From a virus (lineage: Duplodnaviria > Caudoviricetes): 64,000 bases of DNA. The DNA lies in the IMG/VR virus record IMGVR_UViG_3300028833_000057, positions 1-64,000 of that record. The stretch is one strand, 5' to 3'. Every line of letters begins with the position of its first letter. The first letter of the stretch is position 1. The notes under the pieces were generated by a model. The model saw nothing but the letters and a program-made list of their open reading frames with translations. It was not told where the DNA came from and ran no database searches. A program made the position numbers and the translations under genes. Shown piece after piece: positions 4,695 to 26,782 of the stretch.

Positions 4695-4702
4695 CATATC
4701 TT

Positions 4703-5466: not shown

Positions 5467-5668
5467 TTCTGAGTGGAAAGATAGAAGTAATGGTTATTCC
5501 CACTGATACATCTTTTTTACCATTACAGTATGAATCTATAATGTAATTTCTAAGGCCAGACTTGAGGGATGGCACATCTGCGCCATCCCACCAATCTATA
5601 ACCAAATCGAAATCACTATCGCTATAGCCATATCTGGCTTTAAAGCATACAAGATATTTCGATTTCAT
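5441..5668 (-). CDS. Hypothetical protein
   Basis: 75-aa ORF, GGAG RBS. Confidence 0.65.
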   Translation of the reverse strand: MKSKYLVCFKARYGYSDSDFDLVIDWWDGADVPSLKSGLRNYIIDSYCNGKKDVSVGITITSIFPLRNGSKDVIR

Positions 5669-5678
5669 GTTGTCTCCA

Positions 5679-7058
5679 TTAGTCTAACAACGTTTGAAGT
5701 CCTAGTGCATAATCTTTATCAAGACTTAAATTACTATTAAACTTTCCATCATTTAAACTAAATGCAAGATTAATAGGACTGAACTTCTTTAGGTCATCAT
5801 CATATTCATCGAATAGTGTTAAGAAGATATTCAAAACGTCTCCATCGTAATCTCCAGTAAGGAACTTTAAGACATTATTTCGAATACTCATAGTATAATC
5901 AGTAATATCAGTTTTGATCTTAGTAATACGCATATATAGAATTGAACCAATAGAAATGGTTGGGTTTCTATTCAGTAAGAATGGATGACCATTTGGTCCA
6001 AGTAAGCGCATCATATAATCATAGATATCCTGATCAAATACCGTAATTGCATTGTTGAAGATTGTCATTGCTTCGAAATAACTAATGTCTTTCTTACGGG
6101 TAAGATAACTTAGGATCTGCAGTTTAAATAATTCTAAGCATACAATATACGGCAAATGTACTTCATCTAAAGCCGTATCTACAGGTAGTGGTGTAATTAC
6201 ACATCTTGATGAGAAATTTAAACGGCTACCTAATACTGTATTTCTAATTAGACCTTTCTTACCATTTAGTGCTAATATAACAAAGTTATCGATGTCAACA
6301 ATCAACTGCTGAATCTTATTACAATATGCTGCTACAGCTAACTCATTTCTATCCTTAGAGAGAGCATGAAGACCTGCAGTTAGCTTTAGGATCTGTACAT
6401 ACTTTTCATTCAGCGGATCAGTAATAACCTTATCCTTAATTACCACGACTGGTCTAAGTCTAGGACTGTACATAGGTATTTTTGTCATAAAGAGCTTATC
6501 ACGATTAGCTCTAATTATTTCATATACATCTTTTTTCTCATCTTTATTCTTTGTGTGATATGTCTCTAAAATAGAGTCGAAGTTATTAATAAACCCTTCA
6601 ACACCCATACCTACACATTCTGGCATAGGATCTTTAGCAGTAGGCTTTAACTCTGTCTCATTCGGGATGACTACATTCCCGTCTACATCGATGGACATGT
6701 TTGTGTTAATATAGCTATTCAGTCTTGAAGTACCAATGTATTGCTGAATAAACTGATAGAATCTCGGATGAATTACTTTATATTCCTTGAGATCTATCCA
6801 ACCTACTCTAGAGATAACTGATTGTTTCTTCTCTACTATGGTCTTACAGGATTCACACTCTAAGCCTTCATAAATCCTGCCTCTAAGATTACCACATTTA
6901 CAAGAATATTCAATTTCATCTCCATGAATTTTACCAAATACTTTTTCAGAATATAATCCATCATCTGTAAATGCTCTGGATTTATCCATTATTTCTGCAT
7001 TGGTAATTACTCTAGATGAATCAAATATATCATCCATATTTATGAAACTTAATTTCAT
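5679..7058 (-). CDS. rpoC: Phage multisubunit RNA polymerase beta'-like subunit, N-terminal/catalytic part (probably non-virion RNAP)
   Basis: GLYSEKVFG, Zn ribbon CKCG..CESC, GKKGLIR, G.RLNFSSR.VI, LLNRNPTI, catalytic GDYDGD; true start MKLSF at 7058 with AAAGGA RBS. Confidence 0.92.
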   Translation of the reverse strand: MKLSFINMDDIFDSSRVITNAEIMDKSRAFTDDGLYSEKVFGKIHGDEIEYSCKCGNLRGRIYEGLECESCKTIVEKKQSVISRVGWIDLKEYKVIHPRFYQFIQQYIGTSRLNSYINTNMSIDVDGNVVIPNETELKPTAKDPMPECVGMGVEGFINNFDSILETYHTKNKDEKKDVYEIIRANRDKLFMTKIPMYSPRLRPVVVIKDKVITDPLNEKYVQILKLTAGLHALSKDRNELAVAAYCNKIQQLIVDIDNFVILALNGKKGLIRNTVLGSRLNFSSRCVITPLPVDTALDEVHLPYIVCLELFKLQILSYLTRKKDISYFEAMTIFNNAITVFDQDIYDYMMRLLGPNGHPFLLNRNPTISIGSILYMRITKIKTDITDYTMSIRNNVLKFLTGDYDGDVLNIFLTLFDEYDDDLKKFSPINLAFSLNDGKFNSNLSLDKDYALGLQTLLD

Positions 7059-10094: not shown

Positions 10095-10122
10095 TAAGCT
10101 AGTATGTTCGCATACTAGCTTA
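10095..10122 (+). terminator. Terminator with UUCG loop
   Basis: Perfect 12-bp stem taagctagtatg/catactagctta. Confidence 0.75.
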
Positions 10123-10170: not shown

Positions 10171-10527
10171 ATGGCTACTGATATTTCTTTAATTCGAATA
10201 CACGAATTACAGACGGCAAATGATGCTGTGGATCTTCCTAGTACTGAAATTGCTATTGACCGTGTAGGATTTTCTAGAGCATATAAAATACCTTTAATTA
10301 AAGTATTTACATATATAAAAGATAAAGTAGTAACACCAGCATTAGATACTTTACATTTGATAGCTCATACAGGAAATTATGGTGATCTTAACGCTGCATC
10401 AATTCCTCAGCACTTGAGAGATCAGCAAGATGCTAATCAAGTATTAGCTTCTGATAATTCGGGTCATGTTGCATACACTGATCCAATGGAACTTTTAAAA
10501 ATTAGAACTATAGACCTCGACGACTAA
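10171..10527 (+). CDS. Tail-fibre segment A (putative proximal anchor)
   Basis: N-terminus IRIHEL resembles IRIIDL of the 24185 fibre; carries an IAHTGNYGDL fibre repeat. Confidence 0.6.
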   Translation: MATDISLIRIHELQTANDAVDLPSTEIAIDRVGFSRAYKIPLIKVFTYIKDKVVTPALDTLHLIAHTGNYGDLNAASIPQHLRDQQDANQVLASDNSGHVAYTDPMELLKIRTIDLDD

Positions 10528-10538
10528 AGGAAAGTTTT

Positions 10539-11666
10539 ATGAGTACTTATGTATATCAAATAAATGGACAAGAAATTTTAGCCAAACGTGCTGAATGCAC
10601 AAGAACTGGCAGAAATATTGATAATGAGTTAGATGCACTTAAAAGAGATATTGATGGTATTGGTGCATTTGAAATTGTAGACTCAATGACAGGAGATCCT
10701 CCACATCCAGATGTGGCTAAACCATCTCATAAAGTCATCTACCTTTATAGAGAACCGCAGTCTCAGGATAAAGACCCATATCAGGAATGGGTTTATACTC
10801 AGAGCAATACTTGGGAATGTATTGGTGAAACGTCTATTGACCTAACACCATATGCTACAACTGCTAGTGTTGAAGCTATAATTGAAAGCTTAGATGCTAG
10901 TGTTAGTTCTAGTGATGGTACTAATGTCAATGTGCAGATTGTAGAAGTTAATGGTAAAATTACCAGTGTAAGTATTATTAGAGATACTACTGTTAATGCT
11001 ACAACATATGCTAACGATAAAGCTGCCATTGAAGAGGATATTTCCGAAATTCAAGGAAATATGGCTCATAGGGTTACTACTGCTGGTTGGGAAGCTGGTA
11101 ATTTTGCTAGCCTTTCTAGTAATGGTGACTTAGCAGATTCTGGATATGAAGCTGCAGATTTTGCTGGAAAGGGTGAGTTTGATACTGCCATTCAAACTGT
11201 CGAAAATGAGATAGATGCTCTTGAAGATGGTAAAATGGATAAAGTTCCAGGTGCTCAATCCGGAAATATTGCAGTATTTGGTAACTCTGGTAATGTTGTT
11301 GATGGACTATCAAAAATCTCAGATTTAGCTACTAAAAGCGAATTTAATGCTTATAAGACATCAAATGATGCAGAAGTAGCTAAGAAGGCAAACAAAGATA
11401 CTAATGCTACTGCTGGTAACTTTGCAAAATTTGTAGCTGGTGGTGATATTGCTGATTCTTCATATAATGAGAATTCATTTGCTACTGCTGCACAAGGTGC
11501 TAAGGCTGATACTGCTATTCAGGGAGTTAAATGCTATACTGATGCCGAATTAACACCTGATGCTAATAAGAAAATTACTTTACCGCAAGCATCTGCTCAA
11601 GTTTATGGTGTGGTCACTGTAGGTTATACTACTATTAATGATGACGAAGAAAATAATAACGGTTAA
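10539..11666 (+). CDS. Tail-fibre segment B
   Basis: Repeated GNFA....G.L.DSG shaft units, short coiled coils, ATAAQGAKADTA motif. Confidence 0.7.
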   Translation: MSTYVYQINGQEILAKRAECTRTGRNIDNELDALKRDIDGIGAFEIVDSMTGDPPHPDVAKPSHKVIYLYREPQSQDKDPYQEWVYTQSNTWECIGETSIDLTPYATTASVEAIIESLDASVSSSDGTNVNVQIVEVNGKITSVSIIRDTTVNATTYANDKAAIEEDISEIQGNMAHRVTTAGWEAGNFASLSSNGDLADSGYEAADFAGKGEFDTAIQTVENEIDALEDGKMDKVPGAQSGNIAVFGNSGNVVDGLSKISDLATKSEFNAYKTSNDAEVAKKANKDTNATAGNFAKFVAGGDIADSSYNENSFATAAQGAKADTAIQGVKCYTDAELTPDANKKITLPQASAQVYGVVTVGYTTINDDEENNNG

Positions 11667-11687
11667 CCTTTAACTATCTTATACACT

Positions 11688-11942
11688 ATGTCAACATATG
11701 TAAGCACAATTAATGATACAGAAATTCTCGCTAGACGCGCTTATGAAGATGAATCTGGCGAGAATCTTCAAGAATCATTAGCATCTAAAGCTACTAATGA
11801 GCAAATAGATGATATTAATGATACAATTGAATCAATTTCTGTAAAAACGGATTGGGAAGAAGAAGATCCTGATTCTTTGAAGTATCTAGATAATAAACCA
11901 GTTCCAATTTCTACATCTGAAATTGAAGGTTTATTCACATAA
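11688..11942 (+). CDS. Tail-fibre segment C (84-aa adaptor)
   Basis: N-terminus matches B; DW....D...Y..NKP repeat; C-terminus ISTSEIEGL. Confidence 0.65.
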   Translation: MSTYVSTINDTEILARRAYEDESGENLQESLASKATNEQIDDINDTIESISVKTDWEEEDPDSLKYLDNKPVPISTSEIEGLFT

Positions 11943-11968
11943 CTAATGGCGTTTAATAAGGAAATATC

Positions 11969-13711
11969 ATGGCAAAATATCTTGATCTAAATGGTCTTTC
12001 TACCTTCTGGGGAAAGATTAAGACATATATAGCTAATCTTAGCGGATCTATAACTGGATCTCCTGGTGCTAGCAAGACTATTACAAGCTATACGGATGCC
12101 GGTGGTAAGACAACTGTTACATTTGCTGATATTCAGATAGCAGAGTCGCAGGTCACCAATCTCACTACTGATCTTGGTAAAAAGGCTCCAATAGCAAGCC
12201 CTGCTCTTACAGGAACACCTACTGCACCTACTGCCGCAGCTGGTACAAATACCACGCAAATTGCTACAACTGCATTTGTTAATACTGCCATTACGAATAA
12301 AATGGCTGAAGCAGATGCTATGATTTATAAGGGCACTTTATCTGGCGGTAGTACTGGTGATTATGGTGCACTAACACCTGCTGCTTCTAAAGGTTGGACT
12401 TATAAGGTTAATACAGCCGGTAAGATCGATGGCGTAGAAGTTGAAGTAGGCGACATGCTTATCTGTAATACAGATAGTACACCTGCCGCTACTGCTAGCA
12501 ATTATACTACAACTGTTGCTAACTGGGATTTCATTCAAGGTAATCTTGATGGTGTAGTTATTGGCCCAGCCGAATCCGTTAATAATAGGGTAGCTATTTT
12601 TGATGGTACTACTGGTAAGAAAATTAAAGATTCTGGTTATACCATAGGCAAATCTGTACCATCTAATGCTGTATTTACTGATGTTAGCGTGGCTGATGCA
12701 TCACATCACTATACACCATCGACAGCATCTGGATCAGATAAATCAGCTTCTGCATCTGGTGCATCTGCGGCTTGGTCTATAGACGTTGTTAAGGGTGTTA
12801 CGCTTAATACGGATGGCAAGGGTCACGTTACAGGTATCTCAGTTACTTCTGGAAAGATTCCTGCTAACCCAAATACTGATACCAAAGTTACTTCAGTTGA
12901 TAATCACTATGCACCAGCTGAAGATTCTGGTTCAGCTATTCCTGCAACTGGTGGATCGGCAACACAGCTTCCGACATCTTCCAGTGGAAGTTTAATTCAA
13001 GTAGTTACTGGCCTTAAGCGTGATGCTAAGGGCCACGTTGTCGGTGTTACATCTGCAGGTCTTTGGAGTCCAGATAATAATACTACATATACTAACGCAA
13101 AACTTGGTCAGGGATATGGCACCTGTTCTACAGCCGAAGCCACGGCTGCAAAAGTAGTAACGCTTTCTAGTTATGAATTAGTAACTGGTGGTATTGTTGC
13201 CATTAAGTTTACATACGGTCTTTGTGCATCTGCTACTTTAAATATTAATAGTAAGGGTGCAAAAAATATATACATTCGTGGTGCCGCCGTAAGCGCTACT
13301 ACTGCTAAAGAAGTTTTAGCTAATGATATTGCTTACTTCATGTATGATGGTACACAGTATCAGTTCCTTGGTACGGATCGTATCTTTGGTGCAGGTATTG
13401 TTAGCTTATCGATTAATGGTAAGACAATTACATGGACTAAAGCAGATGGAACTACTGGTACATTAACCACGCAGGATAATGATACTAAGAATACTGCAGG
13501 ATCTACAGATACTAGCTCCAAGATATTCTTAATTGGTGCTACTTCTCAAGGTACTAATCCAACAACGTATTCTCATGATACAGCATATGTTGGAACCGAT
13601 GGTTGTTTATATAGTAACTCTCAAAAAGTTCTTACAGAAAATGTAGCAGCGAGTACTTACGAGCCTAAAATGACTGCAATTACCGATGCAGAAATAGAAG
13701 CTTTAGAGTAA
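11969..13711 (+). CDS. Tail-fibre segment D
   Basis: ASPALTGTPTAPT...TTQIATTAFV fibre motif, D.KGHV.G repeats, Thr/Ser/Ala-rich. Confidence 0.8.
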   Translation: MAKYLDLNGLSTFWGKIKTYIANLSGSITGSPGASKTITSYTDAGGKTTVTFADIQIAESQVTNLTTDLGKKAPIASPALTGTPTAPTAAAGTNTTQIATTAFVNTAITNKMAEADAMIYKGTLSGGSTGDYGALTPAASKGWTYKVNTAGKIDGVEVEVGDMLICNTDSTPAATASNYTTTVANWDFIQGNLDGVVIGPAESVNNRVAIFDGTTGKKIKDSGYTIGKSVPSNAVFTDVSVADASHHYTPSTASGSDKSASASGASAAWSIDVVKGVTLNTDGKGHVTGISVTSGKIPANPNTDTKVTSVDNHYAPAEDSGSAIPATGGSATQLPTSSSGSLIQVVTGLKRDAKGHVVGVTSAGLWSPDNNTTYTNAKLGQGYGTCSTAEATAAKVVTLSSYELVTGGIVAIKFTYGLCASATLNINSKGAKNIYIRGAAVSATTAKEVLANDIAYFMYDGTQYQFLGTDRIFGAGIVSLSINGKTITWTKADGTTGTLTTQDNDTKNTAGSTDTSSKIFLIGATSQGTNPTTYSHDTAYVGTDGCLYSNSQKVLTENVAASTYEPKMTAITDAEIEALE

Positions 13712-13720
13712 AAACTTTTT

Positions 13721-13749
13721 AATGCTCCGTCTTGAATGGACGGAGCATT
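13721..13749 (+). terminator. Hairpin (terminator or 5' stem) overlapped by late motif AACTTTTTAATG at 13713-13724
   Basis: aatgctccgtc/gacggagcatt. Confidence 0.6.
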
Positions 13750-13770
13750 TTCTTCATAAAAGGAATAAAT

Positions 13771-15696
13771 ATGGCAAAGTATTTAAATCTACAAGGATTA
13801 CAAACCTTTTGGAATAAGATTAAAGGTATAATCTCTGGACTTGATACCAGAATTACCAATTTAAGTACTACTGTAGGCGAACATACAACTGCTATTGCAA
13901 ATAAAGCATCTACGAACCATGCGCACGGCAGCATAACGAACGGTGGAGCCATCACGGACACTGCAGTCGCATTGGCAAGCGGAGACTCGCTCGCATTCGT
14001 GGATTCTTCGGATTCGTCAAAGATAAAGAAGACTTCTATCACCTTTGACGGCAGTACTACGACACAGGCGCTGACCAAGGCTGGTACGTGGGCCACGTTC
14101 AACAACTATTCGCATCCCACCGGTAGCGCCCCGTCCAAGACCGGCGTGCCTACGGCAAATGCCAGTCCCGGATTCGGAGGTACTTTCAAGGTCAACCAGA
14201 TTACGACCGACTCGACCAGTCACGTAAGCTCCGTTACCGAGCGTACCATCACTATACCGAACACCATGGCCACCACTTCGGCTGCCGGTTTGATGAGCGC
14301 GGCGGATAAGACTAAGCTGGATAATGCCACTACCAAGAAAACAGGCTTTGCCTATCGTGGCACAAGTGGCGGGCCGGTATATAAAATTGCCGAGAAAACA
14401 TTTACCAGTAAAACAACAACTCATTCAGAGCAGTTAATATTTGATGTATCATACTCTACACACCCGACTGCCATTGCAACAAGTAGACTTGTAGTATCAT
14501 TTCGTGTGGATGCTAATACATCCGCTACAATGGGATTCGTTACTAATACTGTAATTCGTAAAGAGGGATTCACAGAATTGCCATACAAATTCTATGGAGC
14601 TGTGGACTATGCCAATGGTAAATTTACATTATATGCAAAATATATTAGTGGTGCTTATGTTACAGTAGAAGCCGAATGTATCCTAGCAAGTTCCGAAAAT
14701 ACCGACCTTATCGATAATGTATCCGTATTCAAGACAACAACCGCTGAACTTCCGGATACCGCTAAGGAAGAGACAACTAGATGGGTTGCCAATACATCGG
14801 CAAGTAGTGGAAATGCACCAGTGAAGGTAGATGCGTATGGAACGCTTACCGCCGTTCCAATGGATTCTACGCCGACAGCATCTAGCACGAACTTGATGAC
14901 CAGTGGTGCAATCAAGACTGCGCTGGATGGAAAGTCTGATATATACAAATGGAATGCCGTTACCCAAGGGCAAAAATGGTCACGTATATTCTATAGTGAA
15001 TCTACTGCTGGCGTGGTAGGAAGCTCCGGAATCCTATGGATTGGTTGTACCCGTGCGTCGGTTGTGTGCAATGCGGTCTTCCTTGTCACGGCTGCACATA
15101 ATGGTGCGGAACGCTCAAATATCGTTGAATTGTCATCATGCGGATATTCGGAATTACGCTGTCGGCTAGTCGTAAATAGTTCGGCAAATTATTATTTTGA
15201 GGTATATGATACCGCTAACAGCATTGCATCCGGCACGACACAACAATGGTACTGCCGGTATATACCGTTAAGGGAATCAAAAATTACTACTTATACCGCA
15301 TTTACAGATGGAACTACAATTCCATCTAACTATGCCACATGCAACGATTTTACCATTACTGTGGGCAATTCTGCATTCGCTATAAAAAATATTACTCGAA
15401 GTGGAACAACGTTTACCGCAACTCGGCAGAACGGGTCGACGTTCACGTTCACCCAGCAGGACTCCGATTCAAAGGTTACCCAGACTGCTGACGACACGAG
15501 CACCGGTACCGGATTCGAATTACTGTTTAGCGCGACAGGAGACAACACTACCCGTACGGAAGCATCCAGGAAGTCAAGCAAGCTGACCTACCAGCCAAGT
15601 ACAGGAACACTCAAGTCCACCGCCTACAACGTGAACAGCAAGTGTACCTTGCAATTCAACACAACCACCAACGCGCTGGACTTCGTGTTCGCATAA
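13771..15696 (+). CDS. Tail-fibre segment E
   Basis: Start MAKYLNLQGL with AAGGA RBS; HAHG, GLMSAADKTKLD and DSTPT.SSTNL.TSG fibre motifs. Confidence 0.8.
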   Translation: MAKYLNLQGLQTFWNKIKGIISGLDTRITNLSTTVGEHTTAIANKASTNHAHGSITNGGAITDTAVALASGDSLAFVDSSDSSKIKKTSITFDGSTTTQALTKAGTWATFNNYSHPTGSAPSKTGVPTANASPGFGGTFKVNQITTDSTSHVSSVTERTITIPNTMATTSAAGLMSAADKTKLDNATTKKTGFAYRGTSGGPVYKIAEKTFTSKTTTHSEQLIFDVSYSTHPTAIATSRLVVSFRVDANTSATMGFVTNTVIRKEGFTELPYKFYGAVDYANGKFTLYAKYISGAYVTVEAECILASSENTDLIDNVSVFKTTTAELPDTAKEETTRWVANTSASSGNAPVKVDAYGTLTAVPMDSTPTASSTNLMTSGAIKTALDGKSDIYKWNAVTQGQKWSRIFYSESTAGVVGSSGILWIGCTRASVVCNAVFLVTAAHNGAERSNIVELSSCGYSELRCRLVVNSSANYYFEVYDTANSIASGTTQQWYCRYIPLRESKITTYTAFTDGTTIPSNYATCNDFTITVGNSAFAIKNITRSGTTFTATRQNGSTFTFTQQDSDSKVTQTADDTSTGTGFELLFSATGDNTTRTEASRKSSKLTYQPSTGTLKSTAYNVNSKCTLQFNTTTNALDFVFA

Positions 15697-15709
15697 GGAG
15701 AGATGAATA

Positions 15710-18211
15710 ATGCCACTTAGAGCATGGTACCCGCTTAACGGCAACACGAACAACATGGGCGCGAGCAACCTGACGCTTACCCAGACGACTGCACCCGCAT
15801 GGTCCACTGGGAAGACATCGTCACAAGCCATGACGACCGGCGCGTTCAAGTGGACTGCCGCGCAGTCGAACAGCATTTTCAATAACAACGAGTTCTCGTA
15901 TGCTTGCTGGTTCTATGTAGACGCCGCATCAGGTACGTCCGCTTCGGACTACAAGAAGATATTTGGTGCAGACGGCGGAACTAATTCAAGTAACCGAAAA
16001 TTTACATGTGGCCAGTATCCTACAGTCAATGGATTCCATGTGTCATCGTGGAATGGTAGTTCGCTAATAAATTGCTGTAGACTTGACGATGCGCTCCCTT
16101 CGTACCAGTGGACTCATATCTGCTACTCGTACAAGAAGGGTGCAATCAACATCTACATCAACGGAGTGCTGAAGAAGACGACCGAGCTCACCATGGCGAA
16201 TAGCTCGTATTCGGCAGAGACACCAGTGCTATGGAACTATTCCGGCCGGAGGATATGCGACGTCCGTATCTACGACCACGCGCTCTCCCAGAAGGAGGTC
16301 GCTGAACTGGCCAAGGGGTTGATGATTCACTATACCCTGGACAACCCGTACACTACAGGCATCTACAACTTCTATTCCGGCACTAGGGCACACGGCAATT
16401 CCGACGGGCAGTCATATACCAAGACCAAACTGGCAAACGAGGACGGGTATAACTTTAAGCTGAACCGTACCGGAGATGGCTCCAACAGCTGGCCAAATGT
16501 ATGGTTTAATACCATCAGCCGCACAAATTTTGTCGCCGGTAGAAAATACACATGGTCAGCAAAGGTCAGGTGCAATACTTGGACTGCTGGGTACCTTACG
16601 CTACGTAATTCCATTGCATCCAATGACTGGCAGAATGGTGGCGTTACGGTATGCTCGCCTGAGCTTGCCGATGGCCAGTGGCACCAGTATTCCCGTACAA
16701 TAACCTTGACCGAGGGAATGCACATTGGTTCTACGTATTACTACCTGACCGATGCCGCATACAATGCATCCACCCAGTCGTCCAAGGGATACATGGCCCC
16801 TAATGTGGAATTCTACTGTGGTAATCAGAATGGCAGCGGTACCGTCTACAACATGGACTTCGACATCAAGGAGGTCCAGTTAATCGAATCCGACTCCTTA
16901 CCCGGCTGGGTGGACAACACGATGGCGTCCAATACCGTTCGCGATAACACCGGGCGCGGCAACGATGCCACCTGTTCCGGCTCGGTGACTACGGAAGGTG
17001 GTTCACCCAGGAATACTAGGGCGTTCAAGCTGCTTGAGACATCCTACGTCCAGTATCCGGTGCCTGCCGGGATATCCCAGTGCACAATTGCTTTCTGGGT
17101 AAAGCGGGCTAGTGGCGGAAGATATTCTACAGTAGACTGCTTGAAGAATAACCCAGCCGGTGGTATGTGGCTTGCCGTTAATACCGAGAGCAGTAAACTG
17201 TGGGCCTACTGGGGAGGTACCTATAACAAGGTTAGTGGTTCCCTTACGGCTAATACTTGGTATCACGTAGCATTGACTTTCAATGCCGGAGTAACCCAGT
17301 GGTATCTAGATGGTGTAGCTGTAGGTTCTGCTGTAGATTTCTCCGCCAAGGGTACTACTTGGCCATCTGGTACTAGGACTATAGGCAACAGCTATACGGG
17401 AACTACGTGGACTACCGCGTTCACTGGTTCCATATCCGACTGGAGATTCTATACTACTGTGCTTACAGCCGCACAAATCAAGGAGCTTTACAACGCTCCA
17501 GCTTCAATATCCGATACAGGAGCTGTCTTAGCTGAGCAATTTACCGAAGGAGCTTCTGGAATTTCTGTAGCAAAGACCGGTATCGTTTCCTGTTCTAATG
17601 TTTCATCGCTGCCTATCAAGTATGATAATTCCATACTTATAGAACCAGATGGATCATGCTGGGCTCATATTGGTCATCATGCCGATCCCACGACATACAA
17701 ATTTGCTAGTAGCGATCCGTTTTCTACTGGTGTCTGGAAAGATGCTAGAAGATTCCTCGATCCGTCGGCATGTGATAAAGTGGATAAGTGGGAATTTATT
17801 GCTACACAGCGGGCTACAGCTAGTGGCACTGAACAAAGGTTTAGGTGGATTCAGACTAAGAACCCTAATTCCGCTGTATATGAAGATGTCGTAGCTGCAG
17901 CAGTAACAAAGTACACTACAGACGATGGATATACTAACATGAGTGCGTCATATGGTGGAATCTATAAATTCAACAGTAATACCTACTACGTCATGACCAA
18001 CGGAAATAAAGGTAACTGGTTTGGAGCTATAGGAGCATGGAATGAATGGAATGGCGGTATTCCTGGTATAAATGGCATTGCTGTCAAGGACGGAGGCTAT
18101 CTTGATCTCTATCTCCGCATCGACAATGTTACATGGAATACTAAGAGAGATCTATGTTCCTTTGACAAGGCTGGAAAGTCTGTATTGTCACCGGAGATCA
18201 TTGAGATGTAA
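15710..18211 (+). CDS. Tail-fibre segment F: LamG/ConA-like and carbohydrate-binding receptor-binding protein
   Basis: Two LamG-like domains (WTHI...IYING...DVRIYDHALS; WYHVAL...YLDG...DWRFY..L) and a CBM-like insert. Confidence 0.75.
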   Translation: MPLRAWYPLNGNTNNMGASNLTLTQTTAPAWSTGKTSSQAMTTGAFKWTAAQSNSIFNNNEFSYACWFYVDAASGTSASDYKKIFGADGGTNSSNRKFTCGQYPTVNGFHVSSWNGSSLINCCRLDDALPSYQWTHICYSYKKGAINIYINGVLKKTTELTMANSSYSAETPVLWNYSGRRICDVRIYDHALSQKEVAELAKGLMIHYTLDNPYTTGIYNFYSGTRAHGNSDGQSYTKTKLANEDGYNFKLNRTGDGSNSWPNVWFNTISRTNFVAGRKYTWSAKVRCNTWTAGYLTLRNSIASNDWQNGGVTVCSPELADGQWHQYSRTITLTEGMHIGSTYYYLTDAAYNASTQSSKGYMAPNVEFYCGNQNGSGTVYNMDFDIKEVQLIESDSLPGWVDNTMASNTVRDNTGRGNDATCSGSVTTEGGSPRNTRAFKLLETSYVQYPVPAGISQCTIAFWVKRASGGRYSTVDCLKNNPAGGMWLAVNTESSKLWAYWGGTYNKVSGSLTANTWYHVALTFNAGVTQWYLDGVAVGSAVDFSAKGTTWPSGTRTIGNSYTGTTWTTAFTGSISDWRFYTTVLTAAQIKELYNAPASISDTGAVLAEQFTEGASGISVAKTGIVSCSNVSSLPIKYDNSILIEPDGSCWAHIGHHADPTTYKFASSDPFSTGVWKDARRFLDPSACDKVDKWEFIATQRATASGTEQRFRWIQTKNPNSAVYEDVVAAAVTKYTTDDGYTNMSASYGGIYKFNSNTYYVMTNGNKGNWFGAIGAWNEWNGGIPGINGIAVKDGGYLDLYLRIDNVTWNTKRDLCSFDKAGKSVLSPEIIEM

Positions 18212-18212
18212 G

Positions 18213-18244
18213 AATATTGGACAGGAGTGTTCTTGTCTAATATT
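18213..18244 (+). terminator. Intrinsic terminator
   Basis: aatattggacagga/tcttgtctaatatt. Confidence 0.65.
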
Positions 18245-18263
18245 TATTAAATCTATTAGTCTA

Positions 18264-18275
18264 AACTTAAATTTG
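18264..18275 (+). promoter_or_regulatory. Late promoter motif
   Basis: AACTTAAATTTG upstream of 18302. Confidence 0.45.
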
Positions 18276-18301
18276 ATAATAACCTATATAAGGATATAGA
18301 T

Positions 18302-21300
18302 ATGGCACAACTTAATGACACTATGGTACAGGGAGATCTCCGGGTTACTGGAAAGATCTATGGTACCGATAATGCTATACACTTGGAAAATGCTAACTTA
18401 GCAATACCGATGCTTGGTAATGGTGATTATGTAGGAAGCTCCGGTGACTTTTTTATTGGCTCAGGTAGTGGAAAGAACCTACCAGATACTACAAATAATT
18501 TCAATATCCATACGACAGTAGCTCATTTTTCTGGAACAACTTATAGACTTTCTCAGATTGCTACACCAACATCGTCAAGTAATCCTACCGGAATATATGA
18601 ACGCGGTGGTGTGTCCACTGATGGTATCACATGGACTTTTGGTGGCTGGTTAGCCGTAGCGAATAGCAGTCATTCTCATGGTAATATTACTACTGATGGT
18701 AAAATAGGCTCAACGGCAAATTTACCAGTAGTTACAGGTACATCTGGTGCCGTTACTACTGGTTCATGGGCTACTTCTGCTGCTGATACAGGTTCGTCTA
18801 GTTCAGCAGGTACTGCGAATACATTCTCTAGAGGTGATCATACTCATAAGGTTGCTGTTGCTACTGGTGATTCTGCGGGTCAAGTAAAGATTGCTGGCCA
18901 AAATGCATCTGTAAATGGATGGGCAAATAAAGCAAATCTAGCATCTCCAACATTTACAGGAACACCCGCTGCTCCTACCGCAACTGCTGGAACAAACACT
19001 ACACAAATTGCTACTACTGCGTTTGTACAAACTGCAGTTGGAAATAAATTAAATAGCAGTGGCTTTGTATGCGGATATTGTAGTACTGCCGCAGGTACTG
19101 CACAAAAAGATGTAACTGCAACGAATTATTCTGCTAGCACTGGCAATGTGATAATGGTAAGATTTACCAATACTAATAGCGCTGCCGGTCAGATAAAATT
19201 AAATGCAGGTGGTAAGAATTACCCCATTGTATGGAACGGTACTTTAACCGCTTCTGGATCAACATATGCTCTTCCAGCAGGTACATGGCCCTGTTATTTT
19301 GATGGTGCATATTGGAATATATGGACAACGGGTGCATACCAATTCCAAAAAATATATGCCAAAGATATAGCTACTGATAATACTATCGTTGTTGGGTCTA
19401 CATCTCCTACATATACTGAACTACGTGATAAGTTGTGGAATGGTCAAGTTACTACATATTATGCTAGGACTCTTATAGGGGCATCTTCAGAAATACTATA
19501 TATGCCTTTATTACATATGCCTAATAGTAGCTCTATGGATGTTGGAACTATTGGATTCGGTACATTACATAATGGCATATTCTTTTATGCTACTTACGGT
19601 GTAGGTAATGTCTGGTCATCCAATACAATTAACATACTATCTCCTAGTAGCATTGAAGCCGGTACTGATATAACGGTTAGCACTTTTGGTGGTACCGTTA
19701 CTATTGGCGTTGATACTACTGGAACTGCTTCTGGTACTAATGCCTTTGTAGAAGGAAATGGTACCCAAGCATCAGGTAATTATTCTCATGCCGAAGGCGA
19801 ATCATCTAAAGCTACTCAATCAACAGCGCATGCTGAAGGATATAATACTACAGCCAGTGGATATAATGCTCACGCTGAAGGAAATGGTACTACAGCATCT
19901 TCTGGTTCTACTCATGCTGAAGGAAATGGTACTAAGGCTACTTCAGATAGTGCTCATGCTGAAGGTAGAGCTAGTGAAGCAAACGGTGCGCATTCACATG
20001 CCGAGGGATATAGCACTAAAGCCAATGGTATTGGATCGCATGCTGAAGGCTCTTTAACTAAAACTTTTGGAGTCTCTGCTCATTCTGAAGGTGGTGGAAC
20101 TGCTGCCGTTGGTAAAGACTCTCATGCCGAGGGTCTAAATAGTACTGATGCATGTAAAGTAGGTACTTTAAGTGAAGCCCATACAAGCCAAAGTTCTAAT
20201 ACATGGCATATAAATGGCGTAAATGTATCAACTACTGATGTATTAGTTATACCTACTAGTAATGGTAATAAATTTATTAGCGGTATTCTAGATATATTAG
20301 GTGGAGAGATTGTAACTAAAAAGGATCTAAATGAAACGGTTGCTGCTGGCACTAGTATAATTGTCATATCACAAGGATCTGCTGGAGATTATTCTCACTC
20401 CGAAGGTAAATATACATTTGCCTATGGAGAAGAAAGCCATGCTGAGGGTTATAATACTAAAGCCATAGGGAATAATAGTCATGCTGAAGGAGAGTTAACA
20501 CAAGCAACGGAAATAGGTTCTCATGCCGAAGGTTATAATTCCGCTGCACATGGCGATTATTCTCATGCTGAAGGCAATAATACATATGCTAATGGCAAAT
20601 CTAGTCATTCTGAAGGTAAAAATACGTGGGCAAACTATGAAGCATCACATGCTGAAGGTCAGGCTTCATATGCAAACAATATAGCTAGCCATGCTGAAGG
20701 TGACAGTACATATGCTAATGGTTTATCTAGCCATTCAGAAGGTAAAAATACAAGTGCAAATGCTGCGTATTCACATGCTGAAGGTCAAGATACTGTTGCC
20801 TCAGAAGCTTGTTCTCATGCAGAAGGTTACAGTACTGGCGCACATGGTAATAATGCACATACTGAAGGCTATAAAACTTTGGCTACATCGTCTGCCGCTC
20901 ATGCAGAAGGATCTGAAACTTCCGCATATTTCGATAGCTCACATGCAGAAGGACGTAGTAGCGTATGTCATGCCCAGCAATCTCATGCTGAAGGTTTTTC
21001 CACTATAGCTGCTGCAGCATCTGCACACTCTGAAGGTTCTTATTCAACCACAGTAGGGGTATCATCTCATGCTGAGGGTGGAGTGACAATTGCTGGTGGT
21101 AAAGATGCGCATGCTGAAGGTTTTAATAATGATGTTTTAACTACTAAAACGAAAGCAGCATCTAGTTCTGGAATAACCACAATAGACGTTGAAACTGTAA
21201 CTGGTATTCCAACAGGCATGCCATGGGTAGTTATTCCTAACATACACTTCTGTTCTAGATTAAAAAGAACAATGGGAACAGGCGGTAAAACCTTAGAGCT

Positions 21301-22414
21301 TTATGATTCATTACCAGATGATGTAGACACTAATAGCACCGTTATAATTACAAATAGTGGTGCATTTGGGCAAGCTTCTCATACGGAAGGCCTTAGCACT
21401 AGAGCCGATGATGAAGCTATGCATGCTGCTGGTAAGTATAATGCTACTTTTTCCGGTCTAGCACGTGTTACTGGTTGGGGTACACTTTCAATTCGTAAAG
21501 ATATTGAAAAATTAGATACATCCGGTAATCTCACTCTTGCAGGTAATATTTATGCTAATGGTAATCAGCAAGTAAGTGTATCAGGTCATACACATTCTGC
21601 AAGTAATATTACTTCAGGTACATTTGCTACAGCTAGAATTCCAGATCTGTCTGCTAATAAGATTACAGCAGGTAAATTCCAAGGTAAAGTAACACTGCTT
21701 GCAGATCAATATAATGATAGTCTTACTGCCGGTGCATTAGATGCAAATAATAGTAATATTGTAAAAGTAAACGCTATTTATACTGCAGATACATCTGATA
21801 ATGCATCTGAAGGTATCCATTTCTATAGAGATTCTACGCATGTTGATACTCTATGGATGAATGGTGGAAAATTATTATTTGTACCAAATAGAGCTATAGG
21901 CACAAGTACTAGTGTTGCAGATAGTAATAGAGTACTATATGCTTCATCTGGTAGTAATCCATTTATAACTGCCAATTCAGATGGTGTAGTTTCCAGATGG
22001 ACTGCTGCAGAGTTTATGGGTAATAATGGCCTTAGGATGGGATATAGCACAACTGATCCTGAAGCTAGTACCACCAAGGCTTGTAGTATGATAATATTCA
22101 GATCCGCTGGAGACCATACCATTAATGTAAAAAGTCTACAGGTTGGTAGAGTTTACTTTGTAGGTGTTGGTAAAGGCTGTTTCAGTGGAGCTAATGGATC
22201 TGAGGTTTCTATAAAGCTTTATAATGATTACGGTGCAAATGTTAATTTGTATGTTACTGAAAGTAGTACTGGCACTGTAGTTTTACAAAATACCAGGAGT
22301 TATATTTTGGGAGCTTTTAGAAGTCCGGCAGATAATTATTATTTTGGATATACATTTATTATAGCTAGAGAATCTAATGATGGCATTAATATCCTTGCAG
22401 CAGGTTATAATTAA
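18302..22414 (+). CDS. Tail-fibre segment G with ~30 HAEG (YadA-head-like) repeats
   Basis: 14-aa SHAEGxxTxAxGxx repeats in three blocks; ASPTFTGTP motif; HxH metal-site motifs. Confidence 0.85.
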   Translation: MAQLNDTMVQGDLRVTGKIYGTDNAIHLENANLAIPMLGNGDYVGSSGDFFIGSGSGKNLPDTTNNFNIHTTVAHFSGTTYRLSQIATPTSSSNPTGIYERGGVSTDGITWTFGGWLAVANSSHSHGNITTDGKIGSTANLPVVTGTSGAVTTGSWATSAADTGSSSSAGTANTFSRGDHTHKVAVATGDSAGQVKIAGQNASVNGWANKANLASPTFTGTPAAPTATAGTNTTQIATTAFVQTAVGNKLNSSGFVCGYCSTAAGTAQKDVTATNYSASTGNVIMVRFTNTNSAAGQIKLNAGGKNYPIVWNGTLTASGSTYALPAGTWPCYFDGAYWNIWTTGAYQFQKIYAKDIATDNTIVVGSTSPTYTELRDKLWNGQVTTYYARTLIGASSEILYMPLLHMPNSSSMDVGTIGFGTLHNGIFFYATYGVGNVWSSNTINILSPSSIEAGTDITVSTFGGTVTIGVDTTGTASGTNAFVEGNGTQASGNYSHAEGESSKATQSTAHAEGYNTTASGYNAHAEGNGTTASSGSTHAEGNGTKATSDSAHAEGRASEANGAHSHAEGYSTKANGIGSHAEGSLTKTFGVSAHSEGGGTAAVGKDSHAEGLNSTDACKVGTLSEAHTSQSSNTWHINGVNVSTTDVLVIPTSNGNKFISGILDILGGEIVTKKDLNETVAAGTSIIVISQGSAGDYSHSEGKYTFAYGEESHAEGYNTKAIGNNSHAEGELTQATEIGSHAEGYNSAAHGDYSHAEGNNTYANGKSSHSEGKNTWANYEASHAEGQASYANNIASHAEGDSTYANGLSSHSEGKNTSANAAYSHAEGQDTVASEACSHAEGYSTGAHGNNAHTEGYKTLATSSAAHAEGSETSAYFDSSHAEGRSSVCHAQQSHAEGFSTIAAAASAHSEGSYSTTVGVSSHAEGGVTIAGGKDAHAEGFNNDVLTTKTKAASSSGITTIDVETVTGIPTGMPWVVIPNIHFCSRLKRTMGTGGKTLELYDSLPDDVDTNSTVIITNSGAFGQASHTEGLSTRADDEAMHAAGKYNATFSGLARVTGWGTLSIRKDIEKLDTSGNLTLAGNIYANGNQQVSVSGHTHSASNITSGTFATARIPDLSANKITAGKFQGKVTLLADQYNDSLTAGALDANNSNIVKVNAIYTADTSDNASEGIHFYRDSTHVDTLWMNGGKLLFVPNRAIGTSTSVADSNRVLYASSGSNPFITANSDGVVSRWTAAEFMGNNGLRMGYSTTDPEASTTKACSMIIFRSAGDHTINVKSLQVGRVYFVGVGKGCFSGANGSEVSIKLYNDYGANVNLYVTESSTGTVVLQNTRSYILGAFRSPADNYYFGYTFIIARESNDGINILAAGYN
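19735..21440 (+). repeat. 42-bp-period coding repeat (HAEG beta-roll)
   Basis: Recurring catgctgaagg at 42-nt spacing, interrupted twice by ~80-aa inserts. Confidence 0.85.
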
Positions 22415-23118
22415 TGAAAATAGTAATAATATCAAAGGATCAACCTAAATTTATTGATGCTATTGAAGAGAAAGTATCTAATTTTGATCATATCTTTGTA
22501 ATAGATCGTCCTACAGTAGAATACCGTATCCCTAAAAATTCTATTATGAATTTTGCAGGAGAAGGTTTTCTTGCTGGAAGAATGAGAGATATGGGAGCAT
22601 CCCTATTTGGAAATGATGATATTTTATTTCTAGATGGGGATAAAGCCCCTATTGGCGAAGATTTATCTTTTTTAGATACTTTACCTTATGATTGCATAGT
22701 CTTACCATGTGAAAATGATAGATATAGAGATGAAGGATATTTTAAAGAAGAAGTAGGAGCTATTCCTAATAATAATGATTATAATACTAACTTTAAGAAT
22801 CCTTTTTTTACATGTGGTATTCTTTATAGAAAAAAACTTGTAGAGAAACTCAGAGAAATTAATGGTGGTAGAATATTTAACTCAGTTTTTGATGGAAATT
22901 GGGGAGAAGAAGATCGTTGGAATGGCGATATCATCAATTTTCTTGGTTTTTCTGCAGGTTATACTACAAAAATAAAATTATCTGGCATAGTTGATGGCTG
23001 TGATTTAGAAAATTGTATAGCTGCTAAAAATGTTACAGACAGACATGTACAATATGCCATAAATTCTATGAAACGTATGAATCTACGAAAGAAATATTTT
23101 GGAGACTTCTGTAAATGA
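22414..23118 (+). CDS. GT-A fold glycosyltransferase (GT2/GT7-like)
   Basis: AGRMRDMG, ILFLDGD (DxD), WGEED; TAATG coupling to the fibre gene. Confidence 0.75.
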   Translation: MKIVIISKDQPKFIDAIEEKVSNFDHIFVIDRPTVEYRIPKNSIMNFAGEGFLAGRMRDMGASLFGNDDILFLDGDKAPIGEDLSFLDTLPYDCIVLPCENDRYRDEGYFKEEVGAIPNNNDYNTNFKNPFFTCGILYRKKLVEKLREINGGRIFNSVFDGNWGEEDRWNGDIINFLGFSAGYTTKIKLSGIVDGCDLENCIAAKNVTDRHVQYAINSMKRMNLRKKYFGDFCK

Positions 23119-24113
23119 AGAATTTTTCACCCGAAGAATTTTTAAAATCATTTAATTTTACTGACAAAGATACAAGTTTATTTTATATAGCATACATTTG
23201 TGAAAGTTTGTTATCACATCCAATGTATCAGAAAGTAGCAAATCTTATTACAGATATAAAAGAAGCAGCTATAGATAACATGGATACTGTATATAACTTT
23301 ATGGCTAAATATAATTCTATTAAAGGTAAGATTTTTGCAAATTATCCTCTATTTGATATACCCGTAATAGATAAATGTAATTTAAATTGTGCAAGTTGCA
23401 ATCATTTTGCTCCGTTAGCTTCTGATGCTGAAATTCCAGATATAGATGATTTACATGCATCTATGACTATTTTAAAGGAACAGTATAATCTACCTTGCAG
23501 GTCTATAAATATAACTGGCGGGGAACCACTCCTTAGAGATGATATATGTGATATTATTTATATGGTAAGGGATATATTTTCTAATTATAGACGCAATCTA
23601 TCATCTAATTTAATTCTTTATCCCATATACAGAGAAAAAATTATAAAAGCTATAATTGAGACAAAGTCTAGTATTTATTATTCTGCATATAAAGATATAA
23701 ATAAGGATCAAATAGATATTCTTAAAAATGATGCAAAAGAGTTTAATTTTAAAGCTATTTGCACACATAATAAAAACGATGGATTTGAGCTTTCTAATAT
23801 AAGTATTACAGAGAAAGATTACTTCCAAAATAAAAATGAATGTAATACTGCAGGTTGCTTAACATTAATAGGAAAATATCTTTATTTATGTCCTATTATA
23901 GCATATATCAAATATCCTAATGCTAAATTTAATTTAGATTATAAAATATCTAGATTTGATAGAATTAATTTAGAGGATATAGAAACACCCGAAGAAATTC
24001 TTGTATTTATGAATCTTGCTTCACCATTCTGTGGACATTGTAGGATAAATAGCTTCAATACTATGGAATGGAGTAAGAGTACACTTGAGAAATCTGAGTG
24101 GTTCCAGGATTAG
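23115..24113 (+). CDS. Radical SAM protein with C-terminal Cys cluster (twitch/SPASM-like)
   Basis: CNLNCASCNHF, GGEPLL, C...C...CP...CGHC; ATGA overlap with the GT. Confidence 0.85.
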   Translation: MKNFSPEEFLKSFNFTDKDTSLFYIAYICESLLSHPMYQKVANLITDIKEAAIDNMDTVYNFMAKYNSIKGKIFANYPLFDIPVIDKCNLNCASCNHFAPLASDAEIPDIDDLHASMTILKEQYNLPCRSINITGGEPLLRDDICDIIYMVRDIFSNYRRNLSSNLILYPIYREKIIKAIIETKSSIYYSAYKDINKDQIDILKNDAKEFNFKAICTHNKNDGFELSNISITEKDYFQNKNECNTAGCLTLIGKYLYLCPIIAYIKYPNAKFNLDYKISRFDRINLEDIETPEEILVFMNLASPFCGHCRINSFNTMEWSKSTLEKSEWFQD

Positions 24114-24184: not shown

Positions 24185-26782
24185 ATGAGCTCAGAAATAG
24201 ATAAAATCAGAATTATCGACCTCGAATCTGGCGATAGCTCTGTAAATATTACAGATGCTAGCCATGTTATGATGGTCGATAGTCAGAGTACTGGTTCTAA
24301 GAAACTTTCTATGAATGTACTTCTTGATAAGATTCTTGCATTTGCTAAGTCAAATACTTCAAGAATTTTACCGGATGCTACAGAAAATAAGTATCTTGGA
24401 ACTAATGAAAATAATGTAATCACTTGGAAGGATCTTCCTACACAGGTTAAGCCTGACTGGAATGCTTCTGAATCTTCGGCTGCCGGTATTTTAAATAAGC
24501 CTAGAATGTCCGAATATGCTACTGTTGAAGCAATGAATGCGTCTGATGCAAATCTTGCATCTAGCATTGAATCCGAAGCTACTGATAGAGTTAATGCCGT
24601 TCAGGAAGTTGCTACTAGTGTTTCTCAGGAAGCAACTGCTAGAAGCTCTGCAGATACTATCCTTCAGGGTAATATAGATGCTGAAGCAACTGCCAGAAAC
24701 TCTGCAGATACTACTCTTCAGGATAATATAGATGCTGAAGAGACTAGAGCTACTGCTGCTGAAGGTGCATTAGATACTGCAATTCAGGGTGTCAGTGCTA
24801 ATGTTAATAAGCTTGTTTACGCTTGGGTCTTCAAGGGTAAGAAGTCTCCAACCGAATTAAGCAAACTTACTGATAAGAGAAGCGGTGATGTTTACGAAGT
24901 CACTGTTAATGGTACTATTGGTAACTATGCTGTTAAGGCTGGTGACGTTGTTGCTTACTTTGAATCTAGCTGGATTCATGTTTCTCATGCGATCGTTGCT
25001 CAGGTTCAGTGTGATTGGAATCAGACCGATACTGAAGCTGCAGACTACATTAAGAATAAGCCAGAAAATCTTGTGCAAGATGCTAATTATGTGCATACTG
25101 ACAATAACTACACTAATGCTGATAAGACATTAGTTGCTGGTGCTGCTCAAGAAGCAAGTCTTCCTGCAGTTGCTAGAACTGGCAGCTATAATGATCTTAC
25201 AGATAAGCCGACAATTCCTGCGGCTCAGGTAAATGCCGACTGGACAGCTAATTCTGGCGTATCCCAGATTTTAAATAAGCCCAGCCTAGCTACTGTGGCT
25301 ACTTCCGGCAGTTATAATGATCTTCAGAACAAGCCGACAATTCCTGCTGCTCAGGTTAATGCTGATTGGTCATCTAATTCTGGTGTGTCTCAGATCCTTA
25401 ACAAGCCAGCAAATCTTGTTCAGGATGCAAACTATACACATACCGATAATAACTATACAGATACTGATAAGGGCTTAGTTGCTGGTGCTGCTCAAGCTTC
25501 ATCGCTTGCTACAGTTGCAACCTCTGGTAGTTACACTGATCTTACTAATAAGCCGACAATTCCTGCGGCTCAGGTTAATGCTGACTGGAGTTCTAACTCT
25601 GGCGTATCTCAGATTCTGAACAAACCAGATCTTAAGACAGTTGCTACATCTGGAAACTACGAAGATCTAACCAATAAGCCTTCAATTCCTGAAGAATTCA
25701 ATTATACTTCAAATAGCTCTGGTCTATTTATTCGTAATTCTACTACTCAGTTATCTGATAAACGTGAAGTATGCGTTAATACTAGTGCTATTGCTCCAGA
25801 TATGGCTAAAGAGTTAGCCGGAGAGTACTTAGAAGTATCTAATTCTAATCAACTTGAAGTAGACTTACAAGCACTTGGAGAGGATCTTGCTGGTTCAGGT
25901 CTTTATGCTAGTAGCAGCGGTGCATTATATCCTGCTTGTGATGGCAAAACAATTGACGTTGTAGGGTATACCGACCCTCTACTTGCAGTTTTACATCCAG
26001 TGCCTGATCCTGATGGTGAGACTGGAAAGGTGCTTACAGTTAAGAACGAAGATAATACAGATAAAATAGTTTGGGACAACATAAATACTGTTCCAGATGT
26101 GTCTAGTGGTAATGAAGGTGATGTTCTAACGATAGATAATGGATCAGTTGCATGGGTTGCACCTTCTGGAGGCGGTGGTGGTGGAAACCCTTATACTAAG
26201 GTGTCTGTAACTCCAGGAGATTGCTATCTTAACGGACAAACTTCAGATTATGGATATGACTTATATGACCAAGATGTAACGATCTCAAATAACACATATT
26301 CCGTGCTGTCTAGCCCCATCGGCTGGTATCCTGAGTGGTATGACGATCCGGTAGAACAAGAAGGATGGCATCCCAAACATAATCTAGATAATCTAGTCAT
26401 TAAATTACCTGATAATACGTCATTCCCAATGGCAGTTGTGGAATTCACTGTCCAGGATAGCGATGATTATTCTCTGCAAGGTTGCGTAAACAATGTTAAG
26501 GTAAAGGTTGGAAATACCGAACTTACTAGGATGTATTCTGCCCCATACAATCCGAATGCGCTATTGCTAAGCGGCGAGAATAATGACGAATTTGAATACT
26601 GGAAATTGGCGACAGAGGAAAATCACGGTAATCCTTATTACAGAATAGAACGAGTAATGTCTGCTAATAAAGGAACCGATATCTCAGCCTTTGTACATGG
26701 TACAAAAGTACAAGTCCAAATTTTTGGTTCTTGTTTTAATGTAACCATGAGCCAAGCCTGTGGTGAACCCTCTGCCTCATAA
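24185..26782 (+). CDS. Second tail-fibre protein with internal repeats
   Basis: Coiled coil EATAR..AD..LQ.NI; repeats VATSGSY.DL..KP and QVNADW..NSGVSQILNKP; G.VLT....W and GGGGGG linker. Confidence 0.8.
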   Translation: MSSEIDKIRIIDLESGDSSVNITDASHVMMVDSQSTGSKKLSMNVLLDKILAFAKSNTSRILPDATENKYLGTNENNVITWKDLPTQVKPDWNASESSAAGILNKPRMSEYATVEAMNASDANLASSIESEATDRVNAVQEVATSVSQEATARSSADTILQGNIDAEATARNSADTTLQDNIDAEETRATAAEGALDTAIQGVSANVNKLVYAWVFKGKKSPTELSKLTDKRSGDVYEVTVNGTIGNYAVKAGDVVAYFESSWIHVSHAIVAQVQCDWNQTDTEAADYIKNKPENLVQDANYVHTDNNYTNADKTLVAGAAQEASLPAVARTGSYNDLTDKPTIPAAQVNADWTANSGVSQILNKPSLATVATSGSYNDLQNKPTIPAAQVNADWSSNSGVSQILNKPANLVQDANYTHTDNNYTDTDKGLVAGAAQASSLATVATSGSYTDLTNKPTIPAAQVNADWSSNSGVSQILNKPDLKTVATSGNYEDLTNKPSIPEEFNYTSNSSGLFIRNSTTQLSDKREVCVNTSAIAPDMAKELAGEYLEVSNSNQLEVDLQALGEDLAGSGLYASSSGALYPACDGKTIDVVGYTDPLLAVLHPVPDPDGETGKVLTVKNEDNTDKIVWDNINTVPDVSSGNEGDVLTIDNGSVAWVAPSGGGGGGNPYTKVSVTPGDCYLNGQTSDYGYDLYDQDVTISNNTYSVLSSPIGWYPEWYDDPVEQEGWHPKHNLDNLVIKLPDNTSFPMAVVEFTVQDSDDYSLQGCVNNVKVKVGNTELTRMYSAPYNPNALLLSGENNDEFEYWKLATEENHGNPYYRIERVMSANKGTDISAFVHGTKVQVQIFGSCFNVTMSQACGEPSAS
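24995..25690 (+). repeat. Internal coding tandem repeats of fibre 2
   Basis: aagccgacaattcctgc(g/t)gctcaggt x3; NLVQDANY.HTDNNYT x2. Confidence 0.85.

Follow-up and report, generated by a model that had tools for sequence, protein, structure and literature searches.

Seven co-directional genes, here called A to G, occupy positions 10171-22414 of the window (the first 64 kb, or 64,000 nucleotides, of the 267,826-bp IMG/VR virus record IMGVR_UViG_3300028833_000057, an uncultured phage), and the ends of several of their products resemble each other. The question raised by this locus is whether these ends are docking peptides through which separately encoded polypeptides are assembled into one fibre. 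An earlier note on this DNA had proposed such a chain for all seven genes. The evidence gathered here favours a chain of five genes that ends at E: with a rough probability of 0.7, A to E are five separately made fibre segments joined end to end via their terminal peptides. They would probably be trimeric segments of one long tail fibre, joined non-covalently in gene order. In each joint, a C-terminal stretch of 15-22 residues (hereafter the tail) would meet an N-terminal stretch of 16-30 residues (the head) on the following segment. The joints would be of two unrelated types: type 1 would join A to B and B to C, and type 2 would join C to D and D to E.

Matched termini and their conservation

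Every terminus quoted in the earlier note is present in the window, and the translations were confirmed. The N-termini of B and C are 52% identical over the first 31 residues, and those of D and E are 62% identical over the first 29; in these four proteins, the docking-type head motifs extend over residues 1-18 or 1-30. C and D share the C-terminal pattern I-[ST]-x-x-E-I-E-x-L. The likeness between the tails of A and B is weak inside the window, and it is backed by a family consensus, hydrophobic-G-[TY]-[IV]-D-L, with which B homologues and A-like proteins end. Elsewhere in the genome, a six-frame scan found none of the terminal motifs. The DNA of the two window junctions agrees at only about 70% of positions, the many differences being mostly synonymous, and no DNA repeat was found at the junctions. 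Therefore, the peptides are conserved at the protein level, and the synonymous divergence points to selection on them. A recent duplication of the gene junctions is ruled out by the same observations.

The type-2 tail has the form I-[TS]-x-x-E-I-[DE]-x-[LI], and the head Y-L-[DN]-x-x-G-L-x-x-F-W-x-K-I-K. A type-2 junction was defined as a tail motif no more than 8 residues from the stop codon, followed after a gap of less than 130 nucleotides by a gene with a head within its first 12 or so residues; C/D and D/E both belong to this family. Its occurrence among viral contigs was examined with two independent scans, and adjacency was counted at loci picked by one motif only. For the head scan, G-L-x-x-F-W-x-K-I-K was back-translated to a degenerate DNA pattern. 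The motif of true matches lies at protein residues 7-10, and the upstream gene ends in I/L-T/S-x-x-E-I-D-x-I or a close variant, at a distance of 2-25 nucleotides. In all, a tail precedes 52 of the 57 distinct heads, compared to 182 of 2327 background open reading frames. The reverse scan used I-T-N-x-E-I-D-x-I alone and gave 106 distinct matches, 59 of which lie within 8 residues of a stop codon; nearly all of these 59 have a head-starting gene 2-25 nucleotides downstream. When the count is limited to loci new to the tail scan, a head follows the tail in 29 of 36, compared to 59 of 1896 background open reading frames. The enrichment over background is thus about 10- to 25-fold in two independent samples, and the adjacency that the earlier note had proposed to test across phage genomes holds for type 2 in both directions. 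After removal of near-duplicates, 61 non-redundant junctions remain.

The motifs are strictly terminal in position. A profile built from 63 heads and searched against 1.84 billion protein cluster representatives matched 4,614 clusters (E<=0.001), and nearly all of the matches fall at residues 1-45. Among the best 150 of these clusters, the head lies within the first 12 residues in 123, and 69 end in a tail as well and are thus middle pieces. As a negative control, the head pattern was run over bacterial genomes, where 119 of 120 matches were due to chance, being neither N-terminal nor preceded by a tail; the sole genuine N-terminal head also has a tail upstream. A tblastn search of cultured phages with a 44-residue head returned two weak matches, the query being too short to be useful. 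One 351-residue metagenomic protein (P0182) carries a type-2 tail, an 11-residue linker, and a type-2 head in a single chain (residues ~130-175). This is the only fused form seen, and no in-frame fusion of tail and head was found among 213 fetched loci. It could still be supposed that the short termini resemble each other through chance or composition and have no function, and the weak likeness of the A and B tails within the window, together with the shortness of the type-1 tail motif, would fit this. Such an explanation is very improbable, and for type 2 it is already contradicted by the enrichment, by the 4,614 clusters with N-terminal heads, and by the bacterial control.

Siphophages, myophages, and jumbo phages all have such joints, and this breadth suggests a common element of fibre assembly. 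Three- and four-gene chains are present in L104, L113, L056/L081, and L098. D-like genes with the same two ends as D are found in L004, L233, L238, L245, and L246, and D-like pieces are encoded both by small rumen myophages and by jumbo phages. The type-2 joint (C to D and D to E) is well supported.

The structure of one such joint was predicted from three copies of the last 40 residues of D and three copies of the first 44 residues of E, each with its own unpaired 63-row alignment; this was the one pair modelled. The interface score (ipSAE, interaction prediction score from aligned errors) was 0.85 (0.87, 0.85, and 0.85 in separate runs), compared to 0.01 for the best control. In the calibration of the tool, 0.85 was reached by 58 of 80 solved complexes and by 2 of 110 mismatched pairs, but a 3+3 fold of six short chains with user-supplied alignments lies outside that calibration and the score expresses one model's confidence, which weakens its value for the proposed chain. 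The runs agreed in at least 95% of contacts, and the predicted local distance difference test value (pLDDT) of the partner was at least 94. In the predicted interface, residues 25-39 of the 40-residue tail piece meet head residues 1-16, an exact coincidence with the conserved motifs, and two heads contact each tail. Head and tail profiles had no significant match by sequence to PDB chains at E values up to 10, and recall of a solved complex by the model is therefore unlikely. For the D tail and E head, the six-chain prediction that the earlier note had suggested gave a high score for the cognate pair. Physical binding is suggested by this model, in which three tails and three heads would interdigitate in one compact six-chain junction.

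Type 1 was followed in a similar manner. The family was defined by a C-terminal hydrophobic-x-[TY]-[IV]-[DE]-[LI] and a following gene that starts ...[YF]-[VT]-x-x-[IV]-N-G-x-x-[IL]-x-A-x-R-A; A/B falls clearly within it, and B/C does so with a degenerate tail. A protein search yielded 194 homologues of B with conserved N- and C-termini and variable middles, and a comparison by sequence of B with the PDB gave no match. Gene context was inspected in ten further contigs. Two close relatives (L233 and L238) have the full A-B-C-D-E order, and a head-1 gene directly follows a protein with an A-like end in three distant phages (L235, L237, and L241). In all five, the module ahead of the head-1 gene is the A-type C-terminus, with the pattern aromatic-x-[WY]-x-D-P...T-[IV]-[DE]-L. 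Similarly, a head-1 gene comes after the B-type tail in L236, L240, and L241, and after a small protein with a similar terminal strand in L235, L239, and L242. Altogether, about 14-16 of the 21 head-1 genes in 11 contigs directly follow a type-1 tail, a count made by eye, with no formal background, and for a short motif; L234 is among the exceptions. Two DNA scans of viral contigs for the type-1 head returned chance matches only, or a single locus, and type 1 is therefore rare in that collection. No long proteins with an internal type-1 head were found, which is weak evidence. The type-1 joint (A to B and B to C) thus appears to be real but rarer, and its docking is suggested by gene adjacency.

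Two other features of the type-1 loci were observed. A protein of 119-166 residues is encoded between the B-like gene and the next head-1 gene in L235 (7577-8077), L239 (5728-6087), and L242 (5774-6247); in L235 and L242 it has a basic N-terminus and a C-terminal strand like the type-1 tail. Judging from these sequences, the small proteins may be a further class of adaptor. Additionally, IS605/TnpB-type genes (OrfB_IS605 / Cas12f1-like_TNB) adjoin the fibre modules of L236 (11040-12803), L241 (1277-2629), and L242 (1260-2483).

The two types meet in C, which had been described as a converter, and this description was upheld. Residues 12-83 of C match the C-terminal end of proteins of 338-379 residues that precede D-like genes in small rumen myophages; C is therefore a type-1 head joined to a type-2 tail. 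Its length of 84 residues is kept in L233 and L238. The unrelated 229-kb phage L241 has an analogue in the order anchor, head-1 shaft, a protein of 57 residues resembling a type-1 head with a type-2 tail, and two large proteins with a variant type-2 head. The reverse arrangement, a type-2-like head with a type-1 tail, is found in a 421-residue protein of L237. In the proposed fibre, C would be the adaptor at which type-1 joints give way to type 2.

Proposed assembly order and competing readings

Other phages suggest how such chains are anchored and how they end. In L113, a minor tail protein with a Sipho_Gp37 match (PF14594, 235.6 bits) bears the first tail at its C-terminus, and chains appear to begin on a tail or baseplate protein. 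In L030, an unrelated gut phage, the last piece is a small head-bearing tip fused to a Gp10_C domain (PF21939). Within the window, A would be the virion-proximal anchor and E the exchangeable receptor-binding end.

The type-2 junctions themselves fall into subclasses. Among 63 junctions, tails ending in ...E-[IL]-E-x-[ML]-L are paired with G-L-L-Y heads, and tails ending in ...E-I-D-x-I-[VT]-A with G-L-[small]-Y heads. When leucine at tail position 40 is tabulated against leucine at head position 11, the counts are 14/5/6/38 (Fisher p = 6e-6, not corrected for relatedness). The covarying positions adjoin the place where, in the predicted fold, tail residue 39 touches head residues 11, 14, and 16, and at least eight phages have one junction of each subclass in a fixed order. 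These subclasses fit compatibility classes that set the order of assembly; co-inheritance of the junction would look similar. That the type-1 pair is a diverged copy of type 2 was also considered and was rejected, as neither heads nor tails of the two types have profile similarity. The earlier note's view that the docking pairs are orthogonal stands in part: types 1 and 2 have no detectable similarity and two type-2 subclasses coexist elsewhere, but within the window the two type-2 joints are nearly alike, as are the two type-1 heads.

Several observations weigh against a serial chain A-B-C-D-E. The two type-1 heads in the window are near-identical, as are the two type-2 heads, and A could thus accept B or C, and C could accept D or E, so that the peptides alone need not impose a strict order and the serial arrangement is a proposed one. 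Covariation and adjacency may be partly attributable to the junction being inherited as one unit. The tail of B matches the family consensus in degenerate form only, and a terminator-like hairpin stands between D and E. Elsewhere, type-2 heads without an upstream tail occur in L005, L017, L082, and L094, several type-2 tails lack a following head, and a B-like tail in L234 is without one. We infer a trimeric state, and serial rather than alternative use of the joints, with these points in mind.

Some of the same observations would be expected if the fibres were attached in parallel, with each head acting as an address peptide that anchors its fibre, independently of the others, at one common site on the baseplate or an adaptor. 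B and C would then be alternatives or lie side by side, as would D and E, and the tails would serve, for example, trimer closure or chaperone binding. N-terminal anchor domains common to paralogous fibres are the commonest known arrangement (PMC6872550), and the near-identical heads in the window and the unaccompanied head of L005 are in keeping with it. Additionally, the cultured Bifidobacterium phage BitterVaud1 (L232, MT006236) encodes, at 4363-6013, a tail-bearing protein of 208 residues followed by two paralogous head-bearing tip genes (155 and 148 residues), all annotated as hypothetical, and alternatives thus do occur. Parallel attachment is nevertheless unlikely for A to E, as it leaves unexplained the occurrence of an upstream tail in about 90% of cases, the middle pieces with both head and tail (69/150), the fused form in P0182, and the predicted fold of tail on head.

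Alternatively, the junctions could be mainly patches of DNA homology for swapping fibre cassettes, with no binding role for the encoded peptides. Conserved boundary sequences are established as crossover points in lambdoid and T-even fibres. In the window, guanine-plus-cytosine (G+C) content falls to 0.32-0.34, the genome level, at each junction, compared to 0.40-0.55 in the gene bodies, and the presence of D-like pieces in small rumen myophages as well as jumbo phages is compatible with such exchange. However, the limited DNA likeness of the window junctions, with its many synonymous changes, is not what a homology patch would predict; phages that differ widely in G+C content (e.g., L237) keep identical motifs; a DNA patch has no need of strictly terminal positions; and both fold and fusion speak for an interface between proteins. 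A role in recombination alone is therefore quite unlikely. The G+C dips suggest that joints of the proposed fibre also serve as exchange boundaries, and both roles may coexist. In E and F, G+C content is 0.47-0.55 over window positions 13850-17300, within a genome of about 0.33, and the junction termini are at 0.32-0.34, which suggests imported gene bodies and native joints.

Proposed chain end, gene map, and neighbouring genes

Across this phage and its relatives, the slot that follows D is filled by bodies that measure 278, 641, 1165, or 1197 residues and that all keep the head; E is therefore taken to be the variable distal end. Further docking pairs had been proposed between E and F and between F and G. 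However, F and the first 200 residues of G are absent from the complete related genome G003, and these two pairs are not supported. F matches Laminin_G_3 (PF13385) in two stretches with 116.7 bits, compared to a gathering cut-off of 27.6, and its start, judged against typical beginnings of such domains, may correspond to the first strand of its first LamG domain. F and G would be separate fibres or adhesins. Head-to-tail docking in gene order is thus retained for type 2, from adjacency, the predicted 3+3 interface, and the natural fusion, and for type 1 from adjacency, but not for E/F or F/G.

Table 1. Positions of genes A to G, terminal motifs, and the D/E hairpin in the window
Feature	Position	Strand	Size	Description
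Gene A	10171..10527	+	118 residues	Putative proximal anchor piece; fibre repeat and type-1 tail; homologues at the same position in L233 and L238
Type-1 tail of A	10459..10524	+	22 residues	Last residues of A, ending T-I-D-L-D-D
Gene B	10539..11666	+	375 residues	Putative shaft; type-1 head 10539-10628, type-1 tail 11595-11663
Gene C	11688..11942	+	84 residues	Putative converter; type-1 head 11688-11777, type-2 tail 11898-11939
Gene D	11969..13711	+	580 residues	Putative shaft; type-2 head 11969-12022, type-2 tail 13667-13708
Hairpin between D and E	13721..13749	+	12 bp	Followed by a T-run; terminator-like
Gene E	13771..15696	+	641 residues	Putative distal variable piece; type-2 head 13771-13824; no tail motif
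Gene F	15710..18211	+	833 residues	Two LamG-type domains
Gene G	18302..22414	+	1370 residues	Fibre with 14-residue H-A-E-G repeats

The ATG at 13771 was taken as the start of E because a longer frame from a TTG would cross the D/E hairpin (Table 1). Given this hairpin, E to G may be transcribed separately from A to D, or at a lower level. A strong bidirectional hairpin (10095-10122; 12-bp perfect stem and T-run), terminator-like on both strands, precedes A, and the gene upstream of A resembles a fragment of an RNA-polymerase subunit (phrog_3233). No near-identical phage records were found, and a search for related loci with C as the query found no relative.

In G, about 30 tandem units of 42 nucleotides (14 residues) with an S-H-A-E-G core form two blocks at 19740-21120. 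The same 14-residue repeat also fills a type-2 head-bearing fibre of the unrelated siphophage contig L005. G matches phrog_25468 (function not known) with 204.7 bits. Downstream, a further fibre of 865 residues, H (24185-26782), has an N-terminus that resembles both the N-terminus of A and the extreme C-terminus of A (7/11 identical); its internal repeats of about 115 residues (25055-25691) contain a motif also present in A. Between G and H (22414-24113) are genes of 234 and 332 residues, the second with a C-x3-C-x2-C radical-SAM-type motif. Both are conserved at the same place in the related phage L004, and their products may modify a fibre.

Implications and comparison with known fibre systems

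No part of a phage genome is harder to annotate than its fibre genes, and most proteins of the family described here are labelled hypothetical, those of BitterVaud1 included. A short terminal motif pair indicating which protein docks on which would turn a string of unnamed genes into an ordered fibre model. Such joints would also help to explain why fibre genes are so frequently split, and would mark the natural exchange boundaries of receptor-binding modules. The chances are about even that the two unrelated, portable plug-and-socket pairs, with their coexisting subclasses and mini-adaptors, amount to a general left-to-right code by which multi-gene phage fibres are assembled; in that case, the fibre architecture of an uncultured phage and its interchangeable tips could be read from sequence alone. 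Docking as such is open to testing with a pair of small peptides, ordinary biochemistry, and cultured carriers.

In the long tail fibre of T4, separately encoded segments (gp34-gp35-gp36-gp37) are joined end to end (PMC3004832, PMC5537660). As proposed for A to E, gene order is segment order, and the distal receptor-binding piece is variable. Measured against this end-to-end arrangement, A to E have a conserved gene order and adjacency, and one of their joints is predicted to fold with high confidence. No Pfam or PHROG match of A to E to gp34-37 was obtained, and no sequence relationship was found. Unlike A to E, the T4 fibre includes a monomeric hinge protein and dedicated chaperones, and it has neither a short, portable, and widely shared tail/head peptide pair nor a mini-adaptor that switches joint types.

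A second comparison is the side fibre of the Listeria monocin, an F-type tailocin (FtbN/FtbO/FtbP; PDB 9J1L; PMC11830787). Its consecutive gene products dock trimer on trimer, a C-terminal platform holds the N-terminal 'latch' of the next protein, and the fibre begins on a tail-tip protein. However, the monocin latch consists of three beta-hairpins on a 'treble hook' in a branched 1:3+1 arrangement, whereas a linear 3+3 joint is predicted for type 2, and a PDB profile search (E up to 10) found no similarity of the head and tail profiles to the 9J1L chains.

The anchor-branch receptor-binding proteins of Klebsiella phages KP32, K11, and KP34 and of E. coli phage G7C (PMC6872550, PMC13352976) offer a functional analogy only. 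In these, too, a short conserved N-terminal peptide docks the second protein and the tips are modular and exchangeable. In contrast to the extreme C-terminus used here, docking takes place at an internal T4gp10-like branching domain, and no such domain was found in A to G with Pfam, Gp10_C being confined to the L030 tip. The result there is a branch of two proteins, and here chains of 3 to 5 segments.

In Mu and P2-type phages, the tail fibre assembly protein (Tfa) stays bound at the fibre tip; the N-terminal part of this downstream product binds the C-terminus of the fibre and extends it. Tfa is a small chaperone-type protein with its own fold and family, whereas here the downstream partner is a complete fibre segment, from 60 to over 1000 residues long. 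Outside phages, modular polyketide synthases carry docking domains that likewise (bioRxiv 10.1101/669291) consist of short matched C- and N-terminal peptides in several compatibility classes, with gene order equal to assembly order. This would be an analogy only, as the proteins are unrelated, and docking there is dimeric and serves enzymes rather than being trimeric and structural as proposed here. Searches for the motif pair itself gave no Pfam family, named PHROG function, PDB chain, or relevant paper. Multi-protein fibres and docking peptides as such are known from T4, the monocin, and the Klebsiella phages.

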